Notes: a model not told the origin generated them from the sequence alone. DNA of 64,000 nucleotides from an uncultured Gammaproteobacteria bacterium (GCA_964551135.1 CAZKAT010000003.1:1514-65513); one strand, 5' to 3'. Positions 16,902 to 42,228 are shown, counted from the first letter of the stretch. Program-made: numbers and translations.

Positions 16902-19900
16902 CTAGATACAAGCTCCAGCGGCTACAAGTCCAACCCAACTAGAACCATCAAAGAAGCATAATTCATTCGTATCAGAATCTACGTAAATATCTCCCAGAGA
17001 AGGCGAACTTGGTGCCGCTGACCTTGGTTCCAAACGCATAAGATCAGAAATATGAACAGTTCGCTGTGGAATATTAGTACCAACTCCTAATCGTTTATTC
17101 ACATTGTCCCAATATAAACTAGATTGGTCTTCAATAAGCACACCAGAAGTATTTGAGAATAATATTGAACCATTAGTAAAGTTACCGTCTAAATTAGCAC
17201 CATTAATAGTTGTGGCCTTAACAGTTGTGATATTACCCGTAGTAAAATTAGCTGTAACACCATTAATTTGTGCAGTTGCATTGATAGTACCAGTAACATC
17301 AAGAGCAGTTGCTGGGCTGGATTGATTTATACCAATCTTAACAGCGGAAGTATCTACATAGAGTTGATCGGTGTTAACAGCAAAATCTCCAGTAGTTGAA
17401 AGAGATACGTTTAAGTTAGTACCTGCTCCTGGGGTGATAGTCATGGCACCAGTACCAGTGAAAATAGTTGAAGCACCATCAAAACTTATATTAGGATCTG
17501 CAATAGAAACTGTCGTACTATTAATATCCAAAGGTGCATCCGCAGCCACAGTAAGAGTTTTACTAGCTTTAGTAAAACTCAATGCACCATTGCCTCCTAG
17601 AGCACTACTATCATTGAATTGAAAATTAGTATTAGCTCCTGCTGCCACAAACGATACACTACCATTAGTTAAATTATATTTAGTGCCACCATCATCCATA
17701 AAGTAAAGCTTAGAGTTAGCGGTATTAACATAGATCTGACCAAAGTTACTGATAGCGGTTCCAGGTGCAGCAACCTCATATAGAGCGGTAATACCATTGA
17801 CAGTAAGCAGAGCATCAGCATTAGTAGTACCCACTCCTAATCTATTAGCTGTTCTATTCCAGTAGAGTTTAGAATTATTCTGACTAATTATCCCAATATT
17901 ATTAGAGAAAAGTATGGAACCGTTAGTGAAATTACCATCTAAGTTAGCACCGTTTATAGTTGTAGAGTTAACCGTAGTTATATTGCCAGTAGTAGCTCCC
18001 ACGGTTGTAGCATTAACAGTAGTTATATTACCAGTAGTAGCTCCCACGGTTGTAGCATTAACAGTAGTTATATTAGCAGTAGTACCTGTATAGGTTCCTA
18101 CATAAGCGTTTGCAAAGCGAATTGCATTGGAACCTAAATCATATAACGCGTTACCATTAGGACCAATATTACCTACTACTTGTAATTTAAAACTACTAGG
18201 CAAGCTAGTTCCTATTCCTACATTCTGCGCAAAATATCCATTCTTAGTTACATGAAGATCACCTACGACATCCAAGTTATAAGCAGGAGTATTAGTTCCA
18301 ATTCCAAGTCTATTAAAAGCATCATCCCAAAAAAAGGATACTTCATCTGCATTAAAGGAACCTGGCGTAAGTCCTCTGAATTGAATTGCACCAGGGATAG
18401 TTCCCTGTGATGTATCAGATCCATTATTGACCACATTTACATTTGCCCAGTAAGCAAAGCCACTAGCATCAGTAGTGAGTACATAACCTACAGTTGCACC
18501 ATCCCTCATGGTAATTCCATTTGTAGTTAATAAACCTCTTACTTCTAATTTACTAGCTGGAGTATTAGTACCAATTCCCATTCTATTATTAGCACTATTC
18601 CAATAAACTTGAGAATTATTTTGGCTTATAGCTCCAGCAACATTTGAAAATAGAAGTGAGCCATTGGTAAAATTCAAATCAACTGTGTTGATATAAGCAT
18701 TTGCAAAGCGAGTTGTGTTTGTACCTAAATCATATAAAGCACTAGCATCAGGTCCAATACTACCTGCTACTTGCAATTTAAAACTACTTGGCGTAGCAGT
18801 CCCGATTCCAACATTAGTAGCGCTGGTATCTACATAAAGATGATTAGTGTTAACAGCAAAATCTCCAGTAGTAGCAAGAGACACATTTAAATTAGTACCA
18901 GCACCTGGAGTAATAGTCATAGCACCGGTCCCAGTGAAAGTAGTTGAAGCTCCATCAAAAGCAATATTAGTATCTGCAATAGAAACAGTTGTACTATTTA
19001 TGTCTAAAGGCGCATCAGCAGGGACAGTTAGAGTTTTACTTGCTTTAGTAAATGTTAGAGCTCCATTACCACCAAGAGCATTATTATCATTAAATTGAAA
19101 ATAAGTATTAGCTCCAGCTACCGTAGAAGCACTACCATTAGTTAGGCTGTAAACCACACCACTATCATCTTTAAAATACAATCTAGAGTTCGTAGAATTT
19201 ACATAAACTTGTCCAAAGTTACTCATTGTACTTGGCACTGTAGTTTTAAATAAAGCCAAAACCCCATTAATAGTCAGCATGGCATCAGCATTACTGGTTC
19301 CAACTCCTAATCTAGAATTAGTTCTATCCCAATAAAGCTTAGAATTGTTTTGAGAAATTACACCAGCAGCATTTGAAAACAGAAGCGAACCATTACTAAA
19401 GTCACCATCAAAGCTAGTCGTAGTACCGTTAAAAATACCAGAGACAATGACGTTAGTAAAGCTTGCATTAACACCATTCACAGAGCCAGATGAAAGAACC
19501 TTAGTTAAATTAGCAGTAGTACCATTAATATTAGTAGTAGATAAAACTTTATTGCTAGTGATAGTGCCGCTTAAATTTGCAGCAGTACCATTGAAATTAG
19601 TAGCTAAAACTGTACCTGCAATATAAGCATCATCATCTACCTCAAGATCATCGGCGGCAATAATATCACCAACACCATTTATAAAAGTAGCAATTCCTCC
19701 TCCTACATCTAATTGAGCTGCAGGACTACTGTCACCAATGGCTACCATATTAGTTGATCCTTGCGCAAAAATCAGATGAGTTTGACTGCTTCCTTCTACT
19801 CTAAAATTCACTGAATTAGCAGCTTCATTGAAAATTGCTCCACCATTAGCATTCAATATGATATCTGCTCCAGTTATAGTAGTACCTCCTATAACTGCAC

Positions 19901-21197
19901 TTTGATTTCCAGAACTAGCCCTAGGATATAAATATGTACCTTGATTAACCCATTCACTAGCAGTCGTAAGTAATTGAAGGTTTTGCCAACTAGCTAAACC
20001 GCTAGCATTAGAAACTAATATAAATCCTGCTCTTTGACTTCCATCTTTGATTTGCAATGATCCATTAAAAATTGCATTACCTTGTACTAATCCATTATGA
20101 GTAAAACTAAAAGGACCATTCACCAGGGTTCGTCCATTTAAAAAAGCATTCTGCAGCTTTCCATTACTAGTAAATGATAAAAGAGCATTTATATTACCAC
20201 CATTAGCAATAGAACCAAGAGGACCTTGCGCACCTTGGGGACCTGGGATACCTTGTGCTCCTGAACCACCTGGAATTCCTGCTGGTCCCCTCGGACCAAT
20301 AGGTCCCTGGGGTCCCTGAGAGCCAAGTATTGACCGCGTTCCATTGCTAGTAAAATAAAAATTTACACCATCGTATTCTATAGCTCCATCTACGATATTA
20401 TTAGTTAAAAGTCCTGCCTCAAATTTAATACCAGGACTTTCTCCATCACCAGCTTTAGCAGTAAAATAAGCAGGCTCAGTAATATCGATAACATTACCAT
20501 TACCTTGACCTCCACCAGATCCTTTGGAACTAGTTGATTTGATATATTGAATTCCTTTTATTGAAATTGGTATGGTAACTTTATAAAATCCCGATCTAGA
20601 TTTTATGACACTAGTAGTAATTTGTTTTTGTGGTTTAGCTTCAAAAACCACGTTATCAAAAATATATTGCAACTGACAATCATTAAAATTATTCTGATTA
20701 CAATCTGCATTAGTAAAGGCTTTCAGGGTTTCATTATTTTGGCCTGATAAATTTATAGCAGAGATAGTAGTTTGATAAGTATTTATTAGATTCTTATTAC
20801 TGTTATAAACTTCAAACTGAAGCGTTTTAGAATTCTTAGTAAAATATCCAATATTTATATTTAGTGTTCTGATTTTAGTTTCAGGAGCAAAGGTTATATT
20901 TTGAGTATTGAGAAATGTTCTAATATTGTTATTGATTTCAAAACAATCTATTTTAAAACTACTATTATTGTTGTTATTACTTATATAAAGATCTGTTGAA
21001 TCTATTTTAATATTAATACTATGCGTCTCTTTAAGATTAAGTTCTTGATCTTGCTTAAGTAAATAAAATTTTAGATTTGGATCAGAACCACTTATGAAAT
21101 CTATTGCAATATATGGATCAGATACGGCATTAACATAGCAAAAATTAAGAAGAAGCAAAAATATAAAAATTCTTCTGGTTAATTTATATTTATTCAT
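16902..21197 (-). CDS. Large secreted collagen-like repeat protein (possible surface fibre/adhesin)
   Basis: 1431 aa; N-terminal signal-peptide-like segment; collagen G-X-Y run (GSQGPQGPIGPRGPAGIPGGSGAQGIPGPQGAQGP); two roughly 240-aa near-identical internal modules; recurrent motif NGS(I/L)LFSN...LYW(D/N)...RLG(V/I)GT; very T/N/G/S-rich. Confidence 0.7.
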   Translation of the reverse strand: MNKYKLTRRIFIFLLLLNFCYVNAVSDPYIAIDFISGSDPNLKFYLLKQDQELNLKETHSINIKIDSTDLYISNNNNNSSFKIDCFEINNNIRTFLNTQNITFAPETKIRTLNINIGYFTKNSKTLQFEVYNSNKNLINTYQTTISAINLSGQNNETLKAFTNADCNQNNFNDCQLQYIFDNVVFEAKPQKQITTSVIKSRSGFYKVTIPISIKGIQYIKSTSSKGSGGGQGNGNVIDITEPAYFTAKAGDGESPGIKFEAGLLTNNIVDGAIEYDGVNFYFTSNGTRSILGSQGPQGPIGPRGPAGIPGGSGAQGIPGPQGAQGPLGSIANGGNINALLSFTSNGKLQNAFLNGRTLVNGPFSFTHNGLVQGNAIFNGSLQIKDGSQRAGFILVSNASGLASWQNLQLLTTASEWVNQGTYLYPRASSGNQSAVIGGTTITGADIILNANGGAIFNEAANSVNFRVEGSSQTHLIFAQGSTNMVAIGDSSPAAQLDVGGGIATFINGVGDIIAADDLEVDDDAYIAGTVLATNFNGTAANLSGTITSNKVLSTTNINGTTANLTKVLSSGSVNGVNASFTNVIVSGIFNGTTTSFDGDFSNGSLLFSNAAGVISQNNSKLYWDRTNSRLGVGTSNADAMLTINGVLALFKTTVPSTMSNFGQVYVNSTNSRLYFKDDSGVVYSLTNGSASTVAGANTYFQFNDNNALGGNGALTFTKASKTLTVPADAPLDINSTTVSIADTNIAFDGASTTFTGTGAMTITPGAGTNLNVSLATTGDFAVNTNHLYVDTSATNVGIGTATPSSFKLQVAGSIGPDASALYDLGTNTTRFANAYINTVDLNFTNGSLLFSNVAGAISQNNSQVYWNSANNRMGIGTNTPASKLEVRGLLTTNGITMRDGATVGYVLTTDASGFAYWANVNVVNNGSDTSQGTIPGAIQFRGLTPGSFNADEVSFFWDDAFNRLGIGTNTPAYNLDVVGDLHVTKNGYFAQNVGIGTSLPSSFKLQVVGNIGPNGNALYDLGSNAIRFANAYVGTYTGTTANITTVNATTVGATTGNITTVNATTVGATTGNITTVNSTTINGANLDGNFTNGSILFSNNIGIISQNNSKLYWNRTANRLGVGTTNADALLTVNGITALYEVAAPGTAISNFGQIYVNTANSKLYFMDDGGTKYNLTNGSVSFVAAGANTNFQFNDSSALGGNGALSFTKASKTLTVAADAPLDINSTTVSIADPNISFDGASTIFTGTGAMTITPGAGTNLNVSLSTTGDFAVNTDQLYVDTSAVKIGINQSSPATALDVTGTINATAQINGVTANFTTGNITTVKATTINGANLDGNFTNGSILFSNTSGVLIEDQSSLYWDNVNKRLGVGTNIPQRTVHISDLMRLEPRSAAPSSPSLGDIYVDSDTNELCFFDGSSWVGLVAAGACI
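17080..17900. repeat. Internal direct repeat, copy 2, within the collagen-like gene (approximate bounds)
   Basis: Near-identical antisense ORFs at 17371..17622 and 18847..19098 (about 90% identical over 83 aa) show two copies of a roughly 0.8-kb segment spaced 1476 bp apart. Confidence 0.7.
17986..18075. repeat. Perfect 45-bp tandem repeat (2 full units plus partial flanking copies) inside the collagen-like gene
   Basis: Units 17986-18030 and 18031-18075 are identical (ccagtagtagctcccacggttgtagcattaacagtagttatatta); encodes repeated TTVNATTVGATTGNI; unit length is a multiple of 3. Confidence 0.8.
18560..19380. repeat. Internal direct repeat, copy 1, within the collagen-like gene (approximate bounds)
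   Basis: Same as copy 2; protein-level modules NGSLLFSNAAGVISQNNSKLYWDRTNSRLGVGT... and NGSILFSNNIGIISQNNSKLYWNRTANRLGVGT... Confidence 0.7.
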
Positions 21198-23180: not shown

Positions 23181-23226
23181 TATAGTGGATCCTGACGGTC
23201 GGGCTTCGCCCTCCCTCAGGATGACG
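23115..23226. repeat. GC-rich palindromic element A (RPE-like), 112 bp
   Basis: Perfect 13-bp terminal inverted repeat CGTCATCCTGAGG (23115-23127) / CCTCAGGATGACG (23214-23226) plus inner inverted GGATCCACT/AGTGGATCC; GC-rich island in AT-rich DNA; related to elements at 39469-39577 and 41697-41797. Confidence 0.75.
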
Positions 23227-23262: not shown

Positions 23263-23941
23263 TTACTTTGCTTTCTTGTTGTTATGATTCCAAGACTTAA
23301 CACCAGAAGTTTTAATAGAAACCACTGCACCAGGCTTACCTGAAACTGGTCCCTTAACTAATAAAAGTCTTTGCTCTGGGTCATACTTAACTACTTTCAC
23401 TTTAGTGATAGTTACTACATTGTCACCCATTCTTGCAGGCATGCGCTTACCAGGAAACACACGACCTGGAGTTGTACCAGCACCAAGTGAACCAATGATA
23501 CGCTTAGATTTAGAACCGTGACTACGTCTACCAACTCTCATGTTATAGAGCTTAATACCACTCTGAAACCCTTTACCAATCGAAGTGCTAGTAATATTAA
23601 CTTTCTCAAGATCTTTGAAAAAATCTTCAGCATTAACTGCATCCCCAATATTCACACCTTCGATATTCTCGTTAGTTCTAAATTCTTGTAACTTAGATAA
23701 ACTTGGTAAATTTTTCTTTTGTAAATTTCCTCTTTCAGGTTTAGTTAAAAGTGTGTCTCTCTTCTTGAAAGCTCCAAGTTGAAGCGCATAATAACCATCA
23801 CGCTCTTTAGTTTTAATATCAGTTATGATGTTCTCTGCAATCTGAATAACTGTTACTGGTACTACGTCACCCTCAGCATCAAAGACTTGAGTCATGCCTA
23901 GTTTCTTACCGATTAATCCGAAATCTTTAGTTGTTGTTGCC
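23263..23941 (-). CDS. rplC: 50S ribosomal protein L3
   Basis: Start at ATG 23941 (MATTTKDFGLIGKKLGMTQVF) preceded by AGGAGA RBS; conserved L3 blocks KGFQSG, HGS, PGRVFPGKRM; the track start 24000 adds 19 non-conserved residues. Confidence 0.85.
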
Positions 23942-24147
23942 ATAATTTTCTCCTGTTTTTTTATTAGACTTTGTTTCACATTAGAGTAATTCCGAGACAA
24001 GTCTATCTATACAAGGCCCTAATAAATTAAGACCTACACCTAAGCACAGTATTCTATGGCTAGAACCTTCATGCATAAGGCGTAAGGCTAGATTCTAGCA
24101 ATTGAAGATGCCTAAGTATTATTAAGAAAAGATTCAACAATAGTATC

Positions 24148-29469: not shown

Positions 29470-29964
29470 TTATTTATAAGCACAACCCTTATCATGATCA
29501 TTAACCATACCTACTGCTTGCATGAAAGCATAACAAATAGTCGCTCCGACAAATTTAAACCCATGCTTCTTAAGATCCTTGCTCATAGTATCAGCATCTT
29601 TAAAAGACCAAAGATAATCATTAAAGCTTAGACCTTCTTTCTTGAGCTGTAAGTATGCTTTAGCGTTGATGATCACAGAGTTAATTTTAAGTCTATTGCG
29701 AATGATACCAGCATTATTCATAAGCTTCTCTACCTGCTTTTCAGTAAACTTAGAGACCTTCACTGGATCGAAATTCATAAACGCCTTTCTATAATTCTCG
29801 CGCTTATTAAGCACAGTCTCCCAGCTCAATCCAGCCTGTGCACCTTCAAGGCAAAGCATCTCAAACAATTTCTGATCATCATAGATAGGTACTCCCCATT
29901 CCTTATCATGATAGTCAACGTATAAGGGGTTAGCCAAATTAACCCAATGACAACGCTTCTTCAT
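29470..29964 (-). CDS. tag: DNA-3-methyladenine glycosylase I
   Basis: 164 aa; YHDKEWGVP and LEGAQAGLSWETVL motifs typical of Tag; start overlaps the mutS stop by 4 nt. Confidence 0.85.
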   Translation of the reverse strand: MKKRCHWVNLANPLYVDYHDKEWGVPIYDDQKLFEMLCLEGAQAGLSWETVLNKRENYRKAFMNFDPVKVSKFTEKQVEKLMNNAGIIRNRLKINSVIINAKAYLQLKKEGLSFNDYLWSFKDADTMSKDLKKHGFKFVGATICYAFMQAVGMVNDHDKGCAYK

Positions 29965-32717
29965 AGACTCGATTCAAACAACGGCAACTTACCTATATCA
30001 AGCGAACCATCTTCACTAATAGCATCAGTAATATCGTGCTGATCAAGTTGCTTTTTAGTCATACCAAGCTTGCGGCTACGCTGTGCCTGAAGCTGATTAT
30101 TAATCGCTTTCGCTCTATCCAATACTGACTTCGGCAAACCTGCTAAGCGAGCGACTTCTATACCATAGCTGCGATCAGCTGAACCTTCCACTACTTTATG
30201 CAAGAACTCTATTCTAGTCTTAGCATTAGGACTATCATTTTCTACTACTAATACTTGATAGTTTTTAATACAAGGATATAACCTGTCTAAATTTGCAAGC
30301 TCATGATAGTGAGTTGCAAATATAGTGCGCGCTTGAGTAGTCTTAGCAATATGCTCAACTATAGACCAAGCAATCGCTACACCATCATAAGTACTAGTAC
30401 CTCTACCGATCTCATCTAAAACTATAAAACTTCTATCAGTCATAGAATTAATTATGGTCGCTGTCTCGTTCATCTCCACCATAAACGTAGATCTACCAGA
30501 TGCTAGATCGTCACTTGCGCCAATACGCGTGAAAATTCTATCTACTAATCCAATACATGCTTTAGTCGCTGGCACATAGCTACCCATCTGCGCAAGCAGG
30601 ATGATAAGAGCATTTTGGCGCATATAAGTACTTTTACCTGCCATGTTGGGACCAGTTAAAATCATCAGCTTACATTCCCTGCGAAAATCGTCATCTGCTG
30701 CGTTACGCTCGTCCCTCGAACTGCTCATTGACGTTCTAGTCAACTCCGCGTTCTCGGGACTCGCAAGCCTTGCATCTGAACGATTTTCGGCGGGGATATT
30801 TCCCACACCGAGCGTTATATCATTCGGCACAAACTCTCCAAACTTAAGCTTCTGCTCAAGAACAGGATGTCTTCCTTCTTCGATATACAGTTCATGAGAA
30901 TTAAGAAGTTCAGGACGCTTATAGTTTCTTTCTAGTGCAAGTAATGCCATAGACAGTAAAGCATCTAGCTGTGCGACTTGCAGTGCTATTTGTTTAATAA
31001 TCGGTGACTTAATTGCAAGTGATTTACGTAAACCAGAATAGATCTCATATTCTAAAGCATTACGCCTAGATTCTGCATGAGTAACTTTCTCCTCAAACTC
31101 AATTAGTTCCTCGGTTACAGCTCTGATGGTATTCACCATGGTCTGCTTGATCACATAGTGCTCTGGAAGTTTCTTTTCATTAAGTCTAGAGGTCTCGATA
31201 AAATAACCGTGTACCTTATTAAAACTTACTTTAAGGTTTTTAATGCCAAGCTTCTCTCGCTCAGCATCTTCAAAGTTCTTCATCCAAGCTTCAGAATCTT
31301 CTACTAAAGAAATCAATTCATCCAACTCTGCATTATAACCATGTTTAAGAATATTACCCTCGGTAACAGCAAGAGCCGGATCATCTTTCACCGCATTATC
31401 CACTACTCTAATAAAGTCCAAAGCTTGCTCTGGAATATATTTCAAGCTTGTAAGCAAACCAGATTGCAAACCCTGCATCAAAGCAGAGAGCTGCGTCACT
31501 ATAACCATTGAATGTTTCAATGCCACAGCTTCGCGTGGACTGATAAGTTCACTTGCAAGTCTATTAGAAAGCCTATCTATATCATAAGTCTGTGCTAGTA
31601 AATCCTTAAGTTCATTACATAGACTTGGATCTGAGACCAGTTCAGTAACAGCATCCAATCTAGCGTTAATAGCAGGGATATCATATAGTGGTTGCTCCAT
31701 CCATGCACGCAGTTTACGTCTGCCAAGTTTCGAAGACGTGCGATCTATCGCTGAGAAAAACGAACCAGCACTATTACCTCCCAAGGTTTTATTAAGCTCA
31801 AGATTGCGGCGAGTGCTTGCATCAAGCATCATATACTCACTTACATGATAGCTACGAATTTGATCAAAATTCTTAGCTGAGTTATTAGAGAACTCTGCTC
31901 CTTGAGTTTCTTTCAGATATTCAATAATCGCACCAGCAGCACGAAGTGCATAGCCATTGCTTTCTGTGCCCAAACTATCCTCAATCTGTTTCACTGAATT
32001 AAGCTTGAAGAGATCTTCTATATTTTGCACCGCAAGCTTAGTATCAAAATTCCGGTAATTAAATCCACTCAGATAAAATTCAATATTCAACTGATCTAAA
32101 TTAAACATCAATTCTTCTTCTCTGACGATTTGTCCTTCTAGCTTGCCGGCAGGTTTAGATGGCACTATGATTTCTGAAGCATTAATTCTTGCTAACTCTT
32201 GTTCTAAGTATTCAGCTTTAATTTCAGTAAGATAGAACTCGCCTGTAGAGATGTCTGCATAAGCCAAACCATAATGAGAATATGGAGTAGTCGAGTAAAT
32301 CGCGAGAATAAAATTATTCTGATATGAATCTAGAAACTCGAGATCATTGATAGTGCCAGGAGTGAAAACTTTAGTAATCTCGCGCGGCACTAAACCCTTG
32401 CAAGTTTTAGGGTCAGCCATCTGCTCAGCGATATAAACCTTATAATTGCGCTCGAGTAATTTAGCGACATAAGGTCTAATAGCGCGTGCTGGCACTCCTG
32501 CCATAGGAATACGCCCACCTGGATAAGTACTTTCAGGACGTCCGGTTAGAGTTATTTCCAGTTCTTTAGCAATAGTCTCAGCATCTTCAAAAAAGGTCTC
32601 ATAAAAATCCCCCATTCTAAATAAAAGTACTGCTCTACCTTGAAGCCTAAGCCTGGCATTGAGGTATTGCTGCATTACTGGAGTAAAATTAGAGAAATCT
32701 TGAGTTGGGGTCGACAT
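29961..32717 (-). CDS. mutS: DNA mismatch repair protein MutS (carries an in-frame repeat-element insertion)
   Basis: 918 aa; N-terminal mismatch-binding region (MQQYL...GDFYE) and ABC ATPase Walker A GPNMAGKST; about 33 extra residues immediately N-terminal of the Walker A are encoded by repeat element C. Confidence 0.9.
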   Translation of the reverse strand: MSTPTQDFSNFTPVMQQYLNARLRLQGRAVLLFRMGDFYETFFEDAETIAKELEITLTGRPESTYPGGRIPMAGVPARAIRPYVAKLLERNYKVYIAEQMADPKTCKGLVPREITKVFTPGTINDLEFLDSYQNNFILAIYSTTPYSHYGLAYADISTGEFYLTEIKAEYLEQELARINASEIIVPSKPAGKLEGQIVREEELMFNLDQLNIEFYLSGFNYRNFDTKLAVQNIEDLFKLNSVKQIEDSLGTESNGYALRAAGAIIEYLKETQGAEFSNNSAKNFDQIRSYHVSEYMMLDASTRRNLELNKTLGGNSAGSFFSAIDRTSSKLGRRKLRAWMEQPLYDIPAINARLDAVTELVSDPSLCNELKDLLAQTYDIDRLSNRLASELISPREAVALKHSMVIVTQLSALMQGLQSGLLTSLKYIPEQALDFIRVVDNAVKDDPALAVTEGNILKHGYNAELDELISLVEDSEAWMKNFEDAEREKLGIKNLKVSFNKVHGYFIETSRLNEKKLPEHYVIKQTMVNTIRAVTEELIEFEEKVTHAESRRNALEYEIYSGLRKSLAIKSPIIKQIALQVAQLDALLSMALLALERNYKRPELLNSHELYIEEGRHPVLEQKLKFGEFVPNDITLGVGNIPAENRSDARLASPENAELTRTSMSSSRDERNAADDDFRRECKLMILTGPNMAGKSTYMRQNALIILLAQMGSYVPATKACIGLVDRIFTRIGASDDLASGRSTFMVEMNETATIINSMTDRSFIVLDEIGRGTSTYDGVAIAWSIVEHIAKTTQARTIFATHYHELANLDRLYPCIKNYQVLVVENDSPNAKTRIEFLHKVVEGSADRSYGIEVARLAGLPKSVLDRAKAINNQLQAQRSRKLGMTKKQLDQHDITDAISEDGSLDIGKLPLFESSL
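30692..30790. repeat. Repeat element C (about 97 bp), in frame within mutS
   Basis: About 90% identical to 38316-38412 in gatB (shared core catctgctgcgttacgctcgt...cattgacgt...agtcaactccg...actcgcaagccttgcatctg); GC-rich relative to flanks. Confidence 0.8.
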
Positions 32718-32751
32718 CTAAACCTAATAATAGCGTACCTTAAGTAGTAAA

Positions 32752-33222
32752 TTAATTGTACGGAGTGAGTAGGCTACCTGCTCTTTCTCGTGCTGCTTCA
32801 CGTTCTGGAGAAACTTCAACTTTCCCATTTCCTTGTCCTAGACAATGCTGGTTTATGTAAGCATTAAATTGTCTAGTTCCCACAGAACCCTTCGTTGTAG
32901 CTACTGGCGTAGTAGAACCATTTCTAAAATAACACAAATAAGGTATGTGTTGACTATAAAAATGACTATCAATGTCTTTAACTTTATCTGAGTCAATTTT
33001 TAGTATATTGACTTTGCTAGCAAAATTTTGAGCTAGGGTAGGTAAAGCCCTATCTACTGTCCGGCAAGGCGGACACCAATCAGCTCCAATTTTCAAGAAA
33101 CTGGGCTTATCTGTTGTTCTTAAAAAATCAAGAAGACTATCTAAGCTAGTAAATTCAATTATATTATCAAAACTTCGACTGTATGCCGGAGGTCCCACTA
33201 AATTAGTTTGAGAAATTTCCAT
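32752..33222 (-). CDS. Thioredoxin-family protein
   Basis: 156 aa; WCPPCR active-site motif (variant of WCGPCK). Confidence 0.7.
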   Translation of the reverse strand: MEISQTNLVGPPAYSRSFDNIIEFTSLDSLLDFLRTTDKPSFLKIGADWCPPCRTVDRALPTLAQNFASKVNILKIDSDKVKDIDSHFYSQHIPYLCYFRNGSTTPVATTKGSVGTRQFNAYINQHCLGQGNGKVEVSPEREAARERAGSLLTPYN

Positions 33223-33276
33223 AATAGAAGTAATGATAATACCTTTATATTAAAACTACAAGCCCTAAAAGAAAAA

Positions 33277-33314
33277 ACACCTCAGACCGACCAAATCTGA
33301 GGTGTTTTTATTTT
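33277..33314. terminator. Intrinsic (rho-independent) terminator-like hairpin, potentially bidirectional
   Basis: Perfect 10-bp stem ACACCTCAGA/TCTGAGGTGT with 9-nt loop, followed by TTTTTATTTT on the plus strand and preceded by an A-run (T-run on the minus strand). Confidence 0.5.
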
Positions 33315-33495
33315 CAAATTTAAATCCAAAAACAAACTTTTTTTTAAAATTGTGGTTTTCGGCTTGCACCGGTTGTCCCACCGAGTTGTTTCTGAACCTT
33401 ACTTAAATGATAGTAGCACAGTTTCCTTAAGATTTCACTATTTTTTTATAAATTCTTTTTAATGTTACAATTAAAATTGTAGAGAGGAAATCGTG

Positions 33496-33744
33496 ATGTC
33501 CAAACAAGCAACACTCAATAAAGAAGAGAAAGAGTTAAACAAATTAGTAGACGTTTACCAAAAACATATTAAAGACAAAGGCGAAATAGAGAGTTGGTCA
33601 GACTCTTTTCTAATGACGATACGTGACAAATTTAGAAAAATAGCAAGAATAACCAGGGGTTATTGGACTTTTGACTTCTATGAAACTTTACAAGCTATAA
33701 ATAAGGAAAGCATTAAAAGAGACCTAGTGGCTGAAACTAAATAA
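33496..33744 (+). CDS. Small hypothetical protein (82 aa)
   Basis: ATG at 33496 with GAGAGGAAA RBS 5 nt upstream; basic/acidic helical-looking sequence; no family recognised. Confidence 0.4.
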   Translation: MSKQATLNKEEKELNKLVDVYQKHIKDKGEIESWSDSFLMTIRDKFRKIARITRGYWTFDFYETLQAINKESIKRDLVAETK

Positions 33745-33778
33745 GAAAACCAATGCTGGAGACAAAAAGCTGGTTAAA

Positions 33779-33967
33779 TTATTGTTGAGCTGGTTCTTCG
33801 GCTGCTTTATAAGAGCATTCTGCTGTATCTGCAAACTCTAGAACTTCCCCAAGTCCTTTAAGTTTATTTTCGTACTTGATTATTAAACTATCAAGTTCTT
33901 TTCTTGTTCGATAAAGAGTACCCAATTCCTTAGCGTACTTTTTGAACTCATCGACTATATTTTCCAT
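33779..33967 (-). CDS. Small hypothetical protein (62 aa)
   Basis: ORF only; coiled-coil-like sequence; no family recognised. Confidence 0.25.
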   Translation of the reverse strand: MENIVDEFKKYAKELGTLYRTRKELDSLIIKYENKLKGLGEVLEFADTAECSYKAAEEPAQQ

Positions 33968-34191
33968 TCCATATCTCCTACGTCAGTCATTACCTAAATT
34001 GAAAAGCGAGCAAGGCCACTAGAATATTCAGTTAGCAGCACTCCCTCTTTATAATCGGACAGTCGGGCGCAAAACTTGAGCTCTATTTAGCTGAATTTTT
34101 GCTGCATAATCTATATTTTATTATACGTATGACGGATCTAGAAGGCTTTTGAGCAAAAATACGCTAAATGATCTAGGTCAAATGGGGGAGA

Positions 34192-36714
34192 CTAGAGGCT
34201 AAACACTGACTTCTCTTCCGCTTCTGGAGCTATTTCTAGCTTAGGTCTATATTTTTCTATATCTGCAGGACTTGCAAGCCTATCATAACCACAACCCTTA
34301 GTATCAGAGCAGGCTACTTTATCACCACGCTTAAGAGTTTTATACATCATTAATTTATTGCATTGCGGGCAATGCTCATTGATTGGCGGATACCAGAACA
34401 CTGCATCACACTTAGTCTTAGACCAAGAGTTACAACCATAGAAAATCTTACCGAAGCGTGATTTCTTCTCAACTATCTCACCTTCACAACCTTCTTTAGG
34501 ACAATGTACACCAGTTTTCTTTTGTATAGGCGAAGTATGTTTGCAATCCTTAGTAGTACAAGCAAGGTAGTCACCATAACGTCCATAACGAATCACTAGC
34601 GAACCGTGCTTCTTACAGTCAGGACAATCTTCCTCTGCATAAGGTCTATCATCTGGAGCAGGCTTGCCTTCCTTAGTTAAATTAATAATGGTCTGACAAT
34701 CTGGATACTTAGAACAACCTAAGAAGGGTCCGAAACGAGATGACTTGAGATTCATAGTCGCACCACAACTAGGACAGTTATATTCTGTTGGTATAACAAT
34801 ATTCTCTATCTCACCTGATGCTTTCTTGACTATATCAATGAAGCCAGGGTCTAAACCTTCAGCAGGATCTTTCTCAACCTTAGCAGTCTTAGCATCTGAA
34901 TCTTCTTTTTTCTTCTTGCCGCCACGTTTAGGTTTGATCTTCTCTTTTTTCTTCCAATCTTTACCGAAATAAAATTCCTTGAGCATCACTATCCAATCTT
35001 GACCATGCTCTGCTACTGCATCTAAGCCGCTCTCCATCTGCGAAGTGAAATCTACATTAATATACTTACCAAAGTACTGTACCAATAACTCATTAACTTG
35101 CACACCGAGTCGGGTAGGTCTGAGTGCAGTACCATTCTCTACTTTCTCAACATACTTACGATCTTGAATAGTAGCAATAGTCGGTGCATAAGTAGAAGGT
35201 CTTCCTATGCCCAATTCCTCTAATACCTTCACCAAGCTTGCTTCATTGAACCTTGGTGGACCTTCAGTGAAATGTTGTTCTGGGCTAGCTTTGATCAGCT
35301 TGATTAGAGTGCCTTCTTTAATATCATCAGAGAACTTAGAATCTACTTCTTGAGCTTCCATATCCTCATTAATCTCATGACCACCATCAAATACTATTGA
35401 ATAACCTGCAAATATTTTCTTGGAGTTACTTGCTCTAAATAGCAGATCGCCCTTCTCAGATTCAATCTCCACAGTCTGTATCTCAAGCTTCATTGCCGTC
35501 ATCTGAGACGACATAAACCTCTGCCAGATTAGCTTATAGAGCTTGTATTGTTCATCAGTCAGATAGCTCTTAATTGATTCAGGAGTTTTGTCGATATAAG
35601 TAGGTCTAATCGCCTCGTGTGCATCTTGTTCGTTTGCTTTTTTGACCTTACCGTAAATATTTGGAGGATCAGGATAGTATTTATCTCCCCACTTATTAAG
35701 AATGTATTGTTTAGCTTCTGCCTGAGCTTCTTCAGCAATGCGTAAGCTATCAGTTCTCATATAGGTAATCAAACCAACTTGATCATTGCCACCAAGCTTG
35801 ACACCCTCATAAAGCCCCTGCGCTACCTGCATAGTACGTCTAACGGTAAATCCAAGCGCATTACTTGCTGCTCGCTGTAAAGTAGAAGTCTTAAAAGGAG
35901 CTTGTGATTTCTTGCTATTAGGTTTAGTAGAGATCTTAGTAACACTGAGCTTTGCAGATTTAATACGCTCAGTAATCTTATCCACTTCTGCTTTAGAACT
36001 AATCACCATCGCCTTAGTAGCATCGTAATCCTTCAGTGGGCTAACGATACGTTTAGAATCGACTTGCGCTAAAGCAACTCTAAAAGGATGATCTTTAGCA
36101 GCTTCTGTGACATCAGCATCTACTGACCAATATTCTTCAGGTATAAACTTAAGTATCTCTGCTTCTCTTTCACAAATTAATCTCACCGCAATAGACTGTA
36201 CTCTACCAGCACTACGTCCACCAATCTTGCGCCATAATAACGGACTGATCTTATAACCAACTAACCTATCCAAAATTCTTCGAGCTTGCTGAGCATCTAC
36301 CAGAGCTTGATTGATCTCCCTTGGATGCGCCACAGCACTTTTAACAGCATCAGGAGTGATTTGATTAAACGCAATTCTAGAAAACTTTTTACTCTTAATA
36401 ATCTGAGATAAATGCCACGCAATAGCTTCTCCTTCACGGTCAGGGTCGCTTGCTAGATAGATATGCTCAGCCTTCTTAGCAAACTCATTAAGCTCATCAA
36501 CAACCTTCTTCTTACCGGTCATAATCTCATAGCTTGGCTCAAAGTTATTCTTAACATCTATGCCTAAACCCTTAGCTGCAAGATCACGAATATGTCCAAC
36601 ACTTGATTTAACCAAGAAATCAGCCCCTAGTATCTTCGTAAGGGTCTTGGATTTAGCAGGTGACTCAACTATCACCAGGTATTTAAAATCTTTCTCTGAA
36701 CTTGTTTTAGCCAT
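34192..36714 (-). CDS. topA: DNA topoisomerase I
   Basis: 840 aa; N-terminal TOPRIM (LVIVESPAKSKTL), type IA topoisomerase core, C-terminal Cys4 zinc-ribbon repeats (CPSCGATM...CSKYPDC). Confidence 0.9.
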   Translation of the reverse strand: MAKTSSEKDFKYLVIVESPAKSKTLTKILGADFLVKSSVGHIRDLAAKGLGIDVKNNFEPSYEIMTGKKKVVDELNEFAKKAEHIYLASDPDREGEAIAWHLSQIIKSKKFSRIAFNQITPDAVKSAVAHPREINQALVDAQQARRILDRLVGYKISPLLWRKIGGRSAGRVQSIAVRLICEREAEILKFIPEEYWSVDADVTEAAKDHPFRVALAQVDSKRIVSPLKDYDATKAMVISSKAEVDKITERIKSAKLSVTKISTKPNSKKSQAPFKTSTLQRAASNALGFTVRRTMQVAQGLYEGVKLGGNDQVGLITYMRTDSLRIAEEAQAEAKQYILNKWGDKYYPDPPNIYGKVKKANEQDAHEAIRPTYIDKTPESIKSYLTDEQYKLYKLIWQRFMSSQMTAMKLEIQTVEIESEKGDLLFRASNSKKIFAGYSIVFDGGHEINEDMEAQEVDSKFSDDIKEGTLIKLIKASPEQHFTEGPPRFNEASLVKVLEELGIGRPSTYAPTIATIQDRKYVEKVENGTALRPTRLGVQVNELLVQYFGKYINVDFTSQMESGLDAVAEHGQDWIVMLKEFYFGKDWKKKEKIKPKRGGKKKKEDSDAKTAKVEKDPAEGLDPGFIDIVKKASGEIENIVIPTEYNCPSCGATMNLKSSRFGPFLGCSKYPDCQTIINLTKEGKPAPDDRPYAEEDCPDCKKHGSLVIRYGRYGDYLACTTKDCKHTSPIQKKTGVHCPKEGCEGEIVEKKSRFGKIFYGCNSWSKTKCDAVFWYPPINEHCPQCNKLMMYKTLKRGDKVACSDTKGCGYDRLASPADIEKYRPKLEIAPEAEEKSVFSL

Positions 36715-36929
36715 CTTGGTCTTAAATTTTAGTTGATTGATATTCCTTATATATGTTTCTAAGCAGGTCTAATATTACATAGCTATACCACAATTTTTAA
36801 AACTAGTAGAGAAATAAATTATTAATAGGTGTTTTCATTCATATTATTTATGATTATCGTAACGGAGCTATACAAATTAGATCTCAATACGCTAATATTA
36901 ATACATATTAACAGTTTAAGGAGTTGAAT

Positions 36930-37025
36930 ATGATCAAGCAATTAATCGCTGAAATCTTGGCCACAATCACTAATCTGATTCTGGGCCGAAGATATGCATA
37001 TCAAGTAGTGAAACGTAAATCCTAA
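36930..37025 (+). CDS. Candidate small hydrophobic peptide (31 aa)
   Basis: ATG 36930 preceded by AAGGAG with 6-nt spacer; encodes MIKQLIAEILATITNLILGRRYAYQVVKRKS; below the length cutoff of the supplied ORF track. Confidence 0.3.
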   Translation: MIKQLIAEILATITNLILGRRYAYQVVKRKS

Positions 37026-37057
37026 GGAGTCCGACCATAGTACCAGCTAACCTACAA

Positions 37058-37882
37058 GTGAATACAAACTCTAGGCGTGATGCTGATTATGATTTCTCAC
37101 GCCGTTCTAGAATAGATCCTATTTTCAGTCAGACACAAAAACCAAAAAGTTTCATTGCTGATAATGGTGGAAGTTTTATGGGGGATTTACACAATCCTCT
37201 CTTAGAAAACAGTATACATGCCCCTGCTAGATTAGATTACAGACCTAAATTTACTGAATATGGCTTAGATGATTTAATGCATCCAGAAACAATAGACAAA
37301 GCAAAAGACTGGACTGAAAAAATTACCGACTTCTTTAAGATCGCAGGTGATGCTACAAACAAAGTATTCTCACAACTCGGAGATATAACTAATGTTGGAA
37401 TTAATAAAACAGCAAGCAATCCTATGATCGTTACTGCTGGTGCAGCAATCGTAGGATTAATAGCTGGACTTAAAGCTGTAAAAAATATTCTCCATGGTAT
37501 TAAAGTAGCAATGGATCCTAAAAGTGATCCTAAACTAGGCTGGTTGCCACATGAGATATTAGGTATATTACAGGGTGGTTTATTCTTTGGTCTAACTTCT
37601 TCATTCTTTGGTAAGAGAAATTTCCTTACTGAATTCCAAAATGGTAAGCCAGTAGTAAAAGTCAAATCAATTATAGGAGTAGGCGTAGCTGCCCTTGGTT
37701 TAAGTGTCGCAATGGCACTCGCTAAGAGCACTTCAGTATTCCGCAAAGTTCCATTAATAGGACCTGCTATGCAAGAAATCAGTGAAACTGTATTTGGAGC
37801 AGCTAAAGAAGTAACTGTACCAACAGAAGACAATCAGAATGCTGCTGGACACGGAGCTGCTTTACCTGGAATGCCAGGCTAG
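37058..37882 (+). CDS. Hypothetical membrane protein
   Basis: 274 aa with several Gly/Ala-rich hydrophobic helices; start uncertain (GTG 37058 or ATG 37178 with GGTGGAAG upstream). Confidence 0.4.
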   Translation: MNTNSRRDADYDFSRRSRIDPIFSQTQKPKSFIADNGGSFMGDLHNPLLENSIHAPARLDYRPKFTEYGLDDLMHPETIDKAKDWTEKITDFFKIAGDATNKVFSQLGDITNVGINKTASNPMIVTAGAAIVGLIAGLKAVKNILHGIKVAMDPKSDPKLGWLPHEILGILQGGLFFGLTSSFFGKRNFLTEFQNGKPVVKVKSIIGVGVAALGLSVAMALAKSTSVFRKVPLIGPAMQEISETVFGAAKEVTVPTEDNQNAAGHGAALPGMPG

Positions 37883-39444
37883 AGTAATTTAGCAAGTATC
37901 TCATTTACCATTGCTGGCGAAGCTTTACCCTGCGTAAGTTTCATAACCTGTCCCACAAAAAACCCTTGAATCTTTGCGTTACCAGATTTATATTGTTCTA
38001 CTTGTTTTGGATTAGCAGAGATCACTTCTTTAATAACAGTCTCCAAAGCTCCTGTATCAGTAATCTGTGCTAGACCTTTATCATCAATTAACTTCTGCAC
38101 TGAACCACCATTAACCAAAAGCTCATTAATAATATCGTTCTTAGCAATATTATCCGAAATAATGCCTTGATCTATCAGTTTAATCATCTCAGCTAGTAGA
38201 GTTGCTGTAAGTTTAGTTTCTCTGATACTGAGTTTACTCTCGTTGAGGTAAGCAGCTACAGGACCTACCAACCAATTAGCAGCCTTAACAGCATTAGAGC
38301 CTATCCGCAAAGTCCCATCTGCTGCGTTACGCTCGTTCCTCGGACTACTCATTGACGTCTCAGTCAACTCCGTGTCCTCGGAACTCGCAAGCCTTGCATC
38401 TGGGAGCTTTTCGGATAGGCTCTTAATAACCTCTTCAAAATAGATCGCCGTATCCACTTCATCTGTAAGCGTAGTCGCTGTATCTTCATTAATATTAAAC
38501 TCTGCTATATATCTACTACGCTTCTGTTGCGGTAATTCTGGCAGAGAAGTTTTAGCTGTATCAATTTGCTTTTGGTTTAAAGTGAGAGGTAATAAATCTG
38601 GCTCAGGGAAATATCTATAATCATGAGCATCTTCTTTCGATCTCATAGAATGGGTTTTACCAGTGTTCTCATCGAAAAGTCTAGTCTCTTGAACCACAGT
38701 ACCAGCTTGATCTAATATTTCTGATTGACGTTTATATTCATACTCTATAGCGCGAGAAATAGATCTAAAGCTATTAACATTCTTGATCTCAGCGCGAGTA
38801 CCGAACTTCTCAGCACCAGGTTTATTCAATGAAATATTAATATCACATCTAAGCGAGCCTTCTTGCATATTGCCATCACATACTCCTATATATAGAAGTA
38901 TTTTACGCAACTCTTTCACGTAAGCCACAGCCTCATCAGCAGAACGTATATCAGGCTCTGAAACTATCTCTATAAGCGGCGTTGAAGCACGATTAAGATC
39001 TACTAGTGAATAATCTGAACCATGTAATCTCTCAGCACCTGAGTGTACTAACTTACCCGCATCTTCTTCCATGTGAATTCTTAATATGCGCACATCTTTA
39101 GAACCAATATTTAGCTTGCCATGATTACAGATAGGCTTATCGTATTGAGAGATCTGGTAACCCTTAGGTAGATCTGGATAGAAGTATTGCTTGCGATCGA
39201 ATTTAGAATTAAGATCTATCTGACAACCTAATGCTAGTCCAGCTTTAATCGCATACTCTACTGCGCGCTCATTCAATACTGGTAAAACTCCTGGATAACC
39301 CATACATACTGGGCAGGTATTCGCGTTCGGCTCTGCTCCAAACTTAGTAGAACAAGAACAAAATAACTTAGACTCAGTTCTGAGCTGAGCATGGACTTCT
39401 AGTCCGATAACGATTTGGTATTTTAATGCAGTTTCTGTTGCCAT
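37879..39444 (-). CDS. gatB: Asp-tRNA(Asn)/Glu-tRNA(Gln) amidotransferase subunit B (carries an in-frame repeat-element insertion)
   Basis: N-terminal YQIVIGLEVHAQL and CSC...CPVCMGYPG motifs; start set at ATG 39444 (MATETALKYQ...) matching canonical GatB N-termini; the track start 39522 would extend into palindromic element B. Confidence 0.9.
   Translation of the reverse strand: MATETALKYQIVIGLEVHAQLRTESKLFCSCSTKFGAEPNANTCPVCMGYPGVLPVLNERAVEYAIKAGLALGCQIDLNSKFDRKQYFYPDLPKGYQISQYDKPICNHGKLNIGSKDVRILRIHMEEDAGKLVHSGAERLHGSDYSLVDLNRASTPLIEIVSEPDIRSADEAVAYVKELRKILLYIGVCDGNMQEGSLRCDINISLNKPGAEKFGTRAEIKNVNSFRSISRAIEYEYKRQSEILDQAGTVVQETRLFDENTGKTHSMRSKEDAHDYRYFPEPDLLPLTLNQKQIDTAKTSLPELPQQKRSRYIAEFNINEDTATTLTDEVDTAIYFEEVIKSLSEKLPDARLASSEDTELTETSMSSPRNERNAADGTLRIGSNAVKAANWLVGPVAAYLNESKLSIRETKLTATLLAEMIKLIDQGIISDNIAKNDIINELLVNGGSVQKLIDDKGLAQITDTGALETVIKEVISANPKQVEQYKSGNAKIQGFFVGQVMKLTQGKASPAMVNEILAKLL
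38316..38412. repeat. Repeat element D (about 97 bp), in frame within gatB
   Basis: About 90% identical to 30692-30790 in mutS; encodes ARLASSEDTELTETSMSSPRNERNAADG, paralleling ARLASPENAELTRTSMSSSRDERNAADD in MutS. Confidence 0.8.
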
Positions 39445-41606: not shown

Positions 41607-41696
41607 ACATAGTCTTAATCAGGGAATGATATAATCAATAGCAACTAAGGTATTTAGTCTGTAAACTGACAATTTGGTAAACCCAATAATTATAAG

Positions 41697-41797
41697 ACGC
41701 AGTTATTTTGTCATTATTCGAGGCAGTTTGCTCCTGAGCGACCGGAGTGTATATGAACATACATGAGGATCGCGAAGGAGCAAACTAACGAAGAAGA
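41697..41797. repeat. Palindromic element E (about 100 bp), upstream of ssrA
   Basis: Imperfect inverted repeat TTTTGTCATTATTCGAGGCAGTTTGCTCCTGAGCGA / TCGCGAAGGAGCAAACTAACGAAGAAGAATGACAAAAG; termini resemble the GTCAT...GAGG ends of elements A and B. Confidence 0.6.
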
Positions 41798-41823
41798 ATG
41801 ACAAAAGAACAAGTCTTCTTTAT

Positions 41824-42228
41824 GGGGGCGTATAGCTTTGACAGGGGTCAGAGATGGTAAAACGCGAGTCCAGGTAGCCTAGGTCCTGGTAAAGCCAAGG
41901 CAAAACATAAGTGTAAATGAATTTGAAGTAACTGTAGCGCAAGCTACACCTGCTGAGCGTTTCGCTCAAGCAGCTTAGTCCCGACATACTGCGGACACTT
42001 CCTCGCTGCTTAACGGCTAACCGGTTAGGATTGTGAGGCACTAAACAGGTCAGTGCATGAATCATACTTTGATAAGTTTAGTATGAGGAGTAAAGATCAT
42101 AAGCTTAGAACCCGTTGAGTGTCTATGCTCTTAAGCACGGCAACAGCTTAGATTTATAGACTACACTCGTAGTGGTTTATCGTTGAAAACTTTTGGACGC
42201 GAGGGGCAGTTCCTCGCCGCCTCCACCA
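41824..42228 (+). ncRNA. ssrA: tmRNA (transfer-messenger RNA), standard one-piece form
   Basis: 5' GGGGGCG pairs with 3' CGCCUCC (7-bp acceptor stem with G3:U70 alanine identity pair) followed by encoded ACCA; 5' GGGGGCGUAUAGCUUUGACAGGGG resembles the tmRNA tRNA-like domain; T-arm GCGAGG/CCUCGC; internal open frame ending ...AQATPAERFAQAA then UAG, consistent with an Ala-Ala-terminated tag. The overlapping 81-aa minus-strand ORF is considered spurious. Confidence 0.75.

Follow-up and report, generated by a model that had tools for sequence, protein, structure and literature searches.

Rickettsia palindromic elements (RPEs), that is RPE-1 and related families (Ogata et al. 2000), are among the closest described precedents for the repeat considered here, and their behaviour is taken as summarised in PMC10969869. 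Repetitive extragenic palindromic (REP) sequences are a second point of reference, defined as palindromes of 20-40 nt in which one end bears an unpaired tag, GTAG or CGTC; intragenic GTAG and CGTC REPs have been catalogued in several phyla, including in repair genes and tRNA synthetases, with some of them supplying stop codons (Di Nocera et al. 2013, PMC3733652). Here we analyse a 64,000-nt stretch of DNA (CAZKAT010000003.1:1514-65513, hereafter the window) in which two related hairpin-forming segments lie in frame within the unrelated housekeeping genes mutS and gatB. [quoted passage not shown]

Hairpin insertions in mutS and gatB

Both copies occupy the minus strand, from which mutS and gatB are read, and their conserved cores (mutS 30692-30778, gatB 38316-38402) share 89.66% identity over 87 nt by BLASTN; a repeat finder run on the window returned the pair as 99 nt at 87%. 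The GC content of the elements is about 52%, compared with 31-43% in the window. Two sub-motifs of 20-21 nt match exactly twice each in the window, with 0 matches expected from 100 dinucleotide shuffles. In these respects, the preliminary description of two GC-rich, approximately 90% identical segments on the coding strand was accurate, as were the peptides it quoted. The proposed extent of about 97 bp was too narrow, however, since inverted-repeat flanks bring the unit to about 128 nt.

The outer arms of the mutS copy are the inverted repeats CGAAAATCGT/ACGATTTTCG, reaching ATATCCCC/GGGAATGT, and those of the gatB copy are AGAGCCTATCCGAAAAG/CTTTGCGGATAGGCTCT. The arms differ between the two copies, and both pairs have homologous counterparts in copies from other genomes, such as the arms GAGCCTGTCCATAAAGTCCCA of a copy adjoining the mutS stop codon of locus L127 (L-numbers denote fetched loci of other genomes and P-numbers denote MutS homologues in the protein alignment); the arms therefore belong to the element. 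The whole unit measures about 125-130 nt and begins with outer arms of 23-29 nt that vary in sequence while keeping their complementarity. Inside the arms are two near-invariant asymmetric boxes, box A (GCAAGGCTTGCG) and box B (GCGTAACGCAGC), whose mutual pairing includes a G.U pair and a bulged C, and inside the boxes a variable inner stem leads to a small terminal hairpin between GGAG and TGAG. The motif CATCTG (CAGATG on the coding strand), earlier suspected of being a short duplication at the two ends, is an internal part of this hairpin: CAGATG on either side of the core forms a conserved segment with CAGAUG/CAGAUG self-pairing, and other subfamilies carry covarying alternatives at this position, such as CAGTT...AAATG and TCAGA...TATGG.

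Comparison with orthologs showed that the segments are insertions and not ancestral sequence. The net gain over orthologs is +43 codons in both mutS events and +39 codons in gatB, so that the expectation of lengths in multiples of three holds for the net inserts and not for both segments as first delimited (99 and 97 nt). The MutS proteins of L127 (80% identical) and L126 are without the insert, and in the protein alignment the preceding strand of P0007-P0009, P0011, P0012, and many more MutS proteins runs directly into K-I-M-I-L-T-G-P-N. The full mutS element is present in the window and in L002, and L004 carries the same insertion minus 63 nt lost by an internal in-frame deletion. A close comparison is that of P0010 and P0012, whose MutS sequences are 98% identical outside the insert, which P0010 alone of this pair possesses. 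The P0010 copy occupies the same loop with outer arms of the gatB-like subfamily, and because the subfamily differs, it represents an independent event. GatB of L004, L005, L126, and L127 is likewise without the 39-codon insert at site 1. An insert at the same MutS and GatB positions throughout Melainabacteria and outgroups was looked for and not seen.

Within MutS, the insert stops 3 residues ahead of the MutS_V domain and its P-loop. An AlphaFold2 model built from a 25-sequence alignment gave residues 639-680 a predicted local distance difference test score (pLDDT) below 50 and no secondary structure, with confident strands at 632-636 and 684-688 on either side, and the loop before Walker A varies in length among homologs in the alignment. 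The GatB insert lies between Pfam GatB_N (11-294) and GatB_Yqey (380-521). In the same MutS loop, P0013 (locus L158) carries a different palindrome, GTCATTGCGAG...CTCGCAATGAC (-33 kcal/mol), encoding the peptide ...EAKQSPSACKEIATSQQAAPRNDG; it is of the CGTC-REP/RPE-like type and clearly a different element from the mutS/gatB repeat. Further inserts at this site (alignment columns 701-760) are known, as peptides only, from P0014 and P0019. Judging from these protein sequences, the loop before Walker A is a recurrent home for translated palindromes, a recurrence that would reflect survivorship in a permissive loop rather than targeting; this element entered it in two lineages as independent events, besides the different palindrome of P0013. 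At the end of the gene, the copy in L127 (12616-12756, minus strand) begins inside the mutS stop codon (…CAA GTT TGA/GCCTGTCC…, where the slash marks the junction). The element therefore supplies the end of this mutS, the last residues of which differ from those of its relatives.

Secondary-structure prediction yielded one long hairpin for each window copy on the coding strand, with RNA folding energies of -41.9 kcal/mol (z -4.1; opposite strand z -0.8) for mutS and -43.2 kcal/mol (z -4.7; opposite strand z -1.7) for gatB. The conservation of this fold was examined in an 87-sequence MAFFT alignment of copies from a scan for the exact boxes and in an alignment of 118 copies to a covariance model, R1. 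Compensatory changes were present in 16 of the 26 consensus hairpin pairs of the MAFFT alignment. Among the 118 copies, standard pairs filled 92.8% of cells, compared with 30-45% when the 3' partners were slid by 1-3 columns, and cells changed on both sides numbered 518 against 164 +/- 10 in shuffles, none of the 500 shuffles reaching 518; this alignment was fitted to R1, so these counts lean towards structure, and the same helices appear in the independent MAFFT alignment. Two pairs are nearly always G.U (115/118 and 99/118), and the distance from box to palindrome end is 23-29 nt in most of 130 copies despite their differing sequence. With RNA parameters, the strand bearing GCAAGG... folded more stably than its complement in all 118 copies (means -53.0 and -40.4 kcal/mol), and with DNA parameters it did so in 117 of 118; part of this asymmetry comes from the shared core, so that the copies do not count as independent.

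The mutS copies of the window and L002 are orthologous and allow the same question to be followed in situ. Of 141 nt, 20 differ between them; two stem pairs have changed on both sides and still pair (one from C-G to A-T, the other from A-T to G-C), three single changes retain pairing by moving into or out of wobble pairs, and the terminal loop has changed freely. The encoded residues were altered from P to H, N to D, S to P, and R to S. From these small numbers, the hairpin rather than the peptide appears to be preserved. Template switching at quasi-palindromes during replication yields compensatory-looking changes without selection, and a preserved hairpin is explicable by selection on a folded single strand or equally by such template-switch correction.

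The best MutS matches of the window are proteins from metagenome-assembled genomes (MAGs) named Candidatus Melainabacteria, Caenarcaniphilales, or Cyanobacteria bacterium. On the strength of these matches, the host is a melainabacterium, one of the non-photosynthetic cyanobacterial relatives within Cyanobacteriota, and not a member of Rickettsiales. A Rickettsiales host had already been argued against from gene content and from the one-piece transfer-messenger RNA (tmRNA), which we recovered as the only Rfam 15 match at the gathering threshold in the window (41824-42228, 93.6 bits). ARAGORN, run on positions 1-64000, reported no tRNA and did not report this tmRNA.

Features of the window that concern the repeat, with their extents and model scores (ORF, open reading frame)
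Feature	Position	Strand	Details
mutS, host gene, 918 aa, intact ORF	29961-32717	-	Insert directly N-terminal to Pfam MutS_V (685-877) and Walker A GPNMAGKS
mutS copy, full hairpin, ~128 nt	30672-30799	-	R1 97.7 bits; encodes MutS ~639-682, NIPAENRSDARLASPENAELTRTSMSSSRDERNAADDDFRREC
mutS copy, conserved 87-nt core	30692-30778	-	Box A GCAAGGCTTGCG 30762-30773; box B GCGTAACGCAGC 30697-30708
gatB, host gene, 521 aa from MATETALKYQ	37879-39444	-	Mechanical ORF reaches 39522
gatB copy, full hairpin, ~128 nt	38296-38423	-	R1 105.2 bits; encodes (K)SLSEKLPDARLASSEDTELTETSMSSPRNERNAADGTLRIGS
gatB copy, conserved 87-nt core	38316-38402	-	Box A 38386-38397; box B 38321-38332
Distant box-less relative, 133-nt long hairpin	41686-41826	+	R1 21.7 bits, E 0.0085; intergenic

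The distant relative listed last forms a near-perfect hairpin (-55 kcal/mol, z -8.2) that adjoins the 5' end of the tmRNA gene. It retains the central CCGGAG-hairpin-TGAGGAT module and is without both conserved boxes. Two other repetitive regions of the window were noted. A short GC-rich hairpin, TCCTGACGGTCGGGCTTCGCCCTCCCTCAGGA, with a z of -3.5 on the minus strand, occupies the intergenic positions 23189-23222 between an L3-like ORF (23263-24000, minus strand) and an NMT1-like ORF. The sequence after it, GATGACGATTTTCGA, duplicates 14 nt from the 3' end of the mutS element; this hairpin may be REP-like or may be a scar that a further copy left behind. Positions 17200-19420 contain several direct repeats, diverged and spaced about 1.47 kb apart, together with 45-nt tandem units (families D1-D4, D7, and D8); these probably belong to a repetitive surface-protein gene and are unrelated to the mutS/gatB element.

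Distribution of the family across phyla and within melainabacterial genes

In order to find further copies, representative genomes, one per species, were scanned for the exact pattern GCAAGGCTTGCG-N38-68-GCGTAACGCAGC. At least 120 loci in at least six phyla matched both boxes. Among the matches listed were Bacteroidota (Bacteroidales, Rikenellaceae, Alistipes, Tidjanibacter, Marinilabilia, Anaerophaga, and Cryomorphaceae), Desulfobacterota (Geobacteraceae, Geothermobacter, Desulfobacteraceae, and Candidatus Tharpella), Acidobacteria, and Lentisphaerae, and two melainabacterial MAGs held 8 and at least 10 copies. The family thus occurs in gut and sediment Bacteroidota as well as in Desulfobacterota, Acidobacteria, Lentisphaerae, and Melainabacteria. 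Copies are often present at 5-10 or more per genome, and many short contigs start or stop within a copy, which is the signature of a high-copy repeat. R1, applied to about 1 Mb of fetched loci, recovered 118 copies. Only about 16 of 131 copies fall inside a long ORF, and the family is therefore essentially intergenic outside the clade of the window. This distribution, in at least six phyla and mostly between genes, does not agree with the lineage-specific element that had been envisaged at first.

We found no match at the element in E-value scans of the element and four loci against Rfam 15, no match to it by BLAST among PLSDB plasmids, one 21-nt chance match only by BLAST among INPHARED phages, and 0 matches in an exact-pattern scan of IMG/VR. 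A full-text literature search with both box sequences on both strands returned unrelated primer matches only. By these searches, the repeat family appears to be undescribed. Peptide searches gave 3 matches with a word-indexed method, which missed known MutS copies, and 4 matches in a representative library; because such searches are insensitive for a 44-aa insert in clustered proteins, coding copies were sought by DNA patterns. In several Desulfobacterota-like MAGs (L019, L094, L116, L117, L119, L120, and L124), a second GC-rich repeat, CCTTCGGCTTTGCTCAGGGCCGTGAGCCTGTCGAACGG..., directly follows box B and splits the 3' arm in several copies, so that one family of repeats sits within another.

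A metagenome scan for the subfamily present in the window identified 30 loci. Copies with the junction CAGAT/box A lie in frame in genes for a transketolase N-terminal subunit, a LeuA/CimA-like synthase, a U5-methyltransferase, and a short-chain dehydrogenase (SDR), and copies in antisense orientation lie in frame in genes for an AcrB-type transporter and isoleucyl-tRNA synthetase. For the transketolase-N, AcrB, and SDR proteins, the Pfam match is split in two around the insert. In L005, trmD (20248-21132) is an intact ORF of 294 aa with an antisense in-frame copy inside; the public gene call at this locus is a 70-aa C-terminal fragment, and the element therefore degrades automated annotation. 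L126 has an internally deleted remnant at the same trmD site, which is empty in the window and in L004. A remnant in the trmD of the window had been suggested by an anomaly in flank distance and was discarded when the protein alignment showed an empty site. L126 also contains a copy at a second, different gatB site, L145 carries a diverged ortholog of the LeuA insert that is read in another frame and holds a nested insertion, and truncated copies exist elsewhere.

Both window copies can be read without a stop codon in one sense frame (ARLAS...) and in one antisense frame, and for the gatB copy a second antisense frame is also open. A sister subfamily with termini TAGACTTGTCACGAAATCG and the junction TTCAGA/box A is intergenic. 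The RPE-like behavior proposed in the preliminary description was borne out, as the same subfamily lies in frame in at least ten other genes of related genomes. This clade would be unusual in that most of its observed copies are predicted to be translated within housekeeping genes.

Passenger repeat, folded module, and other explanations

The reading that we favor, passenger copies of a non-autonomous hairpin repeat, would work as follows. The multi-copy distribution and the presence or absence of copies suggest that the element spreads within genomes, and evidently between phyla, by an enzyme supplied in trans. One specific single strand, either of DNA or of RNA, would be the recognized form, as the constant strand asymmetry suggests. 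The subfamily of the window, with junctions CAGAT/boxA ... boxB/AGATG, would offer stop-free reading frames, which may have a role in its persistence. Genic copies would persist where the length of the net insert is divisible by three and the site is a permissive loop, and they would be translated as a tolerated hydrophilic appendage of about 40 aa, probably disordered. Several features of a MITE are also present, in that the element has no transposase coding capacity, its 23-29-nt outer arms are complementary in 130 copies, and its insertion is polymorphic between close relatives.

Several observations weigh against this reading. In about 1.3 Mb of flanks, no transposase or other mobilizing candidate recurred next to copies, and no longer autonomous version or parent insertion sequence (IS) with the same termini was present. 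Only 33 of 130 copies have TA within 3 nt of both ends of the palindrome, and at coding sites the filled and empty versions have diverged or been rearranged too far for the junctions, and with them any target-site duplication, to be read. The boxes are more conserved than the termini, which is unlike what a simple transposase recognizing terminal inverted repeats would predict; the invariance of the boxes is partly built into the first alignment, for which the scan required exact boxes, and among copies found by R1 alone the boxes are still kept (109-117/118). Translation of the inserts is deduced from intact ORFs only. Moreover, the conserved G.U pairs and the compensatory change in situ could mean that the hairpin has a function of its own.

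Searches for an autonomous partner yielded none. ORF clusters of the 120 loci contained only histidine kinases, acyl-CoA ligases, and syntenic mur genes, and pairs of termini 0.5-4 kb apart were merely neighboring copies around an ABC permease. A search for empty sites among the fetched loci found every syntenic intergenic pair filled in both genomes. Two subfamilies have TA at their ends: the Marinilabiliaceae copies lie within a unit of about 170 nt that carries one additional terminal repeat on the 5' side and terminates in TA/GTGTCTGTCCATAAAGT.../TA, and the Caenarcanales copies end TA/GACTTGTCACGAAA.../TA. These TA...TA ends resemble those of Tc1/IS630-type MITEs and may offer a weak lead, given the low overall frequency of flanking TA. 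In Marinilabilia and Anaerophaga (L037 and L088), copies also stand head to tail with a few bases (TAAT) between them and include some 41 nt of additional 5' sequence that holds a second copy of the terminal repeat.

Within the passenger reading, it is possible, if rather improbable, that the element is mobilized as folded single-stranded DNA (ssDNA) by an HUH/Y1 enzyme similar to those of IS200/IS605 elements or to the REP-associated tyrosine transposases (RAYTs), and not by a DDE transposase that binds terminal inverted repeats in double-stranded DNA. Mobilization of ssDNA by RAYT-type enzymes has been proposed for REPs and for REP doublets forming hairpins (REPINs). The persistence of the strand asymmetry with DNA parameters is in line with such a mechanism, as are the conserved and asymmetric box mismatches and bulge, the conservation of hairpin geometry rather than terminal sequence, the fact that no consistent target-site duplication was seen, and the occurrence of REPs inside genes of several phyla (PMC3733652). 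However, the alignments revealed no conserved GTAG or CGTC tag beside the hairpin, the fetched flanks of about 10 kb around matches contained no RAYT or TnpA gene, and the TA...TA ends of the Marinilabiliaceae and Caenarcanales copies, with terminal repeats of about 25 nt, look more like those of a Tc1/IS630-type MITE.

The orientation of copies relative to genes bears on this mechanism and on the next explanation. Between co-directional genes, 15 copies are in sense and 32 in antisense orientation, and in coding sequence the numbers are 14 and 10, counts that rest on crude ORF calls and non-independent copies. This mixture argues against a purely RNA-level role for the better-folding strand and leaves a strand-specific ssDNA mechanism of the HUH or RAYT-like type as a serious alternative.

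A rather improbable explanation is that the hairpin is a functional structured cis-acting module of RNA or ssDNA, such as an mRNA stabilizer, a processing site, a protein platform, or a ribozyme-like core, that has been dispersed by chance and would owe its conservation to this function and not to transposition. The strong covariation with its two near-invariant G.U pairs, the greater stability of the same strand in all 118 copies, the constant arm length of 23-29 nt despite sequence variation, the near-invariance of the internal boxes across phyla, and the compensatory change in situ inside mutS while the peptide drifts are all consistent with such a module. Against these stand an orientation to transcription that is not fixed, unrelated contexts that include the inside of coding sequences, presence that varies between genomes with 98% identical MutS, near-identical bursts that break assemblies, the lack of a matching Rfam family, and the ability of quasi-palindrome template switching to mimic compensation without selection.

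It is similarly doubtful that the asymmetric core and the GGAG-hairpin-TGAG tip, with their fixed arm length and universal strand asymmetry, make up a functional single-stranded module of an undescribed kind, the translated copies being kept by selection at the level of the nucleic acid. That such a module might be, for instance, the recognition structure of a new class of structure- and strand-specific mobilizing enzymes shared across phyla, or an RNA motif with an activity of its own, is a suggestion of the same low standing. A core so conserved and strand-asymmetric should point to a shared mobilizing enzyme or RNA function.

Removal of the element as an intervening sequence after transcription or translation, in the manner of an intron or intein and leaving the proteins unaltered, is very improbable. 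A stable mRNA hairpin could by inference be a substrate for a double-strand-specific RNase, but all genic copies keep the frame and are stop-free in whichever of the three usable frames applies, which would be unnecessary if the segment were removed; internally deleted remnants are also in frame, and no signatures of an intein or a group I or II intron are present. Finally, the presence of only two strong copies in the window might suggest ancestral lineage-specific protein parts or gene conversion between mutS and gatB, with no repeat element at all, a possibility we regard as negligible in view of orthologs at 80-98% identity without the segments, of the independent same-site copy of another subfamily in P0010, and of hundreds of mostly intergenic copies elsewhere, the further copies being what excludes conversion.

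Comparison with known repeat systems

Identity with integron attC sites, with inteins or introns, or with GTAG/CGTC REPs was rejected, as the defining features of each are absent from the element. Sites of the attC kind are likewise imperfect palindromes of 57-141 nt with variable sequence, conserved folded geometry, and one active strand with conserved extrahelical bases. The element differs in having no outer R and L boxes (RYYYAAC/GTTRRRY), in its inner rather than outer conservation, and in being dispersed as single copies and not in cassette arrays.

With MITEs such as ERIC, Correia/NEMIS, Nezha, Coxiella QMITE1, and the IS630/Tc1 type, the element shares small size, multiple copies, lack of autonomy, a hairpin with terminal inverted repeats, and occasional in-frame fusions, and some of its subfamilies end TA...TA. 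It differs from them in that the flanks contain no parent IS, no consistent target duplication was seen, conservation is highest inside and not at the termini, and the distribution over phyla is far wider than that of the named MITE families. REPs and REPINs are alike in being hairpin repeats that occur across many phyla and sometimes inside genes, in forming longer folds as dimers, and in the suspected involvement of a single-strand-specific enzyme. In contrast, the alignments of the present element contain no conserved GTAG/CGTC tag, its unit is one hairpin of about 128 nt with two different boxes and not two inverted REPs of 20-40 nt, and no RAYT was found in the fetched flanks.

RPEs, as summarized in PMC10969869, match the element in behavior. 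They are likewise palindromic repeats of about 100-150 nt that form a long hairpin and are GC-rich relative to an AT-rich genome, they lie in frame in many unrelated housekeeping genes and are read through as an extra peptide, and they also have intergenic copies and decay by deletion. The likeness is one of behavior, and here the host belongs to Melainabacteria, the family reaches at least six phyla, with mostly intergenic copies except in one melainabacterial clade, and a near-invariant internal core is combined with variable termini. The finding would extend to non-photosynthetic cyanobacterial relatives what is known from Rickettsia, namely selfish DNA that is translated as part of essential proteins.

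The gain or loss of the insert between genomes with 98% identical MutS provides dated, recent events, and this polymorphism offers a tractable natural experiment on which protein loops tolerate insertions of 40 residues. In practical terms, assemblies break at the element, gene calls are split by it, and MAG annotations give protein lengths that it has inflated. The novelty implied for in-frame palindromes outside Rickettsia is weaker than was first suggested, since they had already been documented, repair genes and tRNA synthetases included, and intragenic palindromic repeats are known in several phyla (PMC3733652). In-gene palindromes as such are thus already known, and what is unusual is the cross-phylum conservation of an internal asymmetric core together with a universal strand asymmetry.

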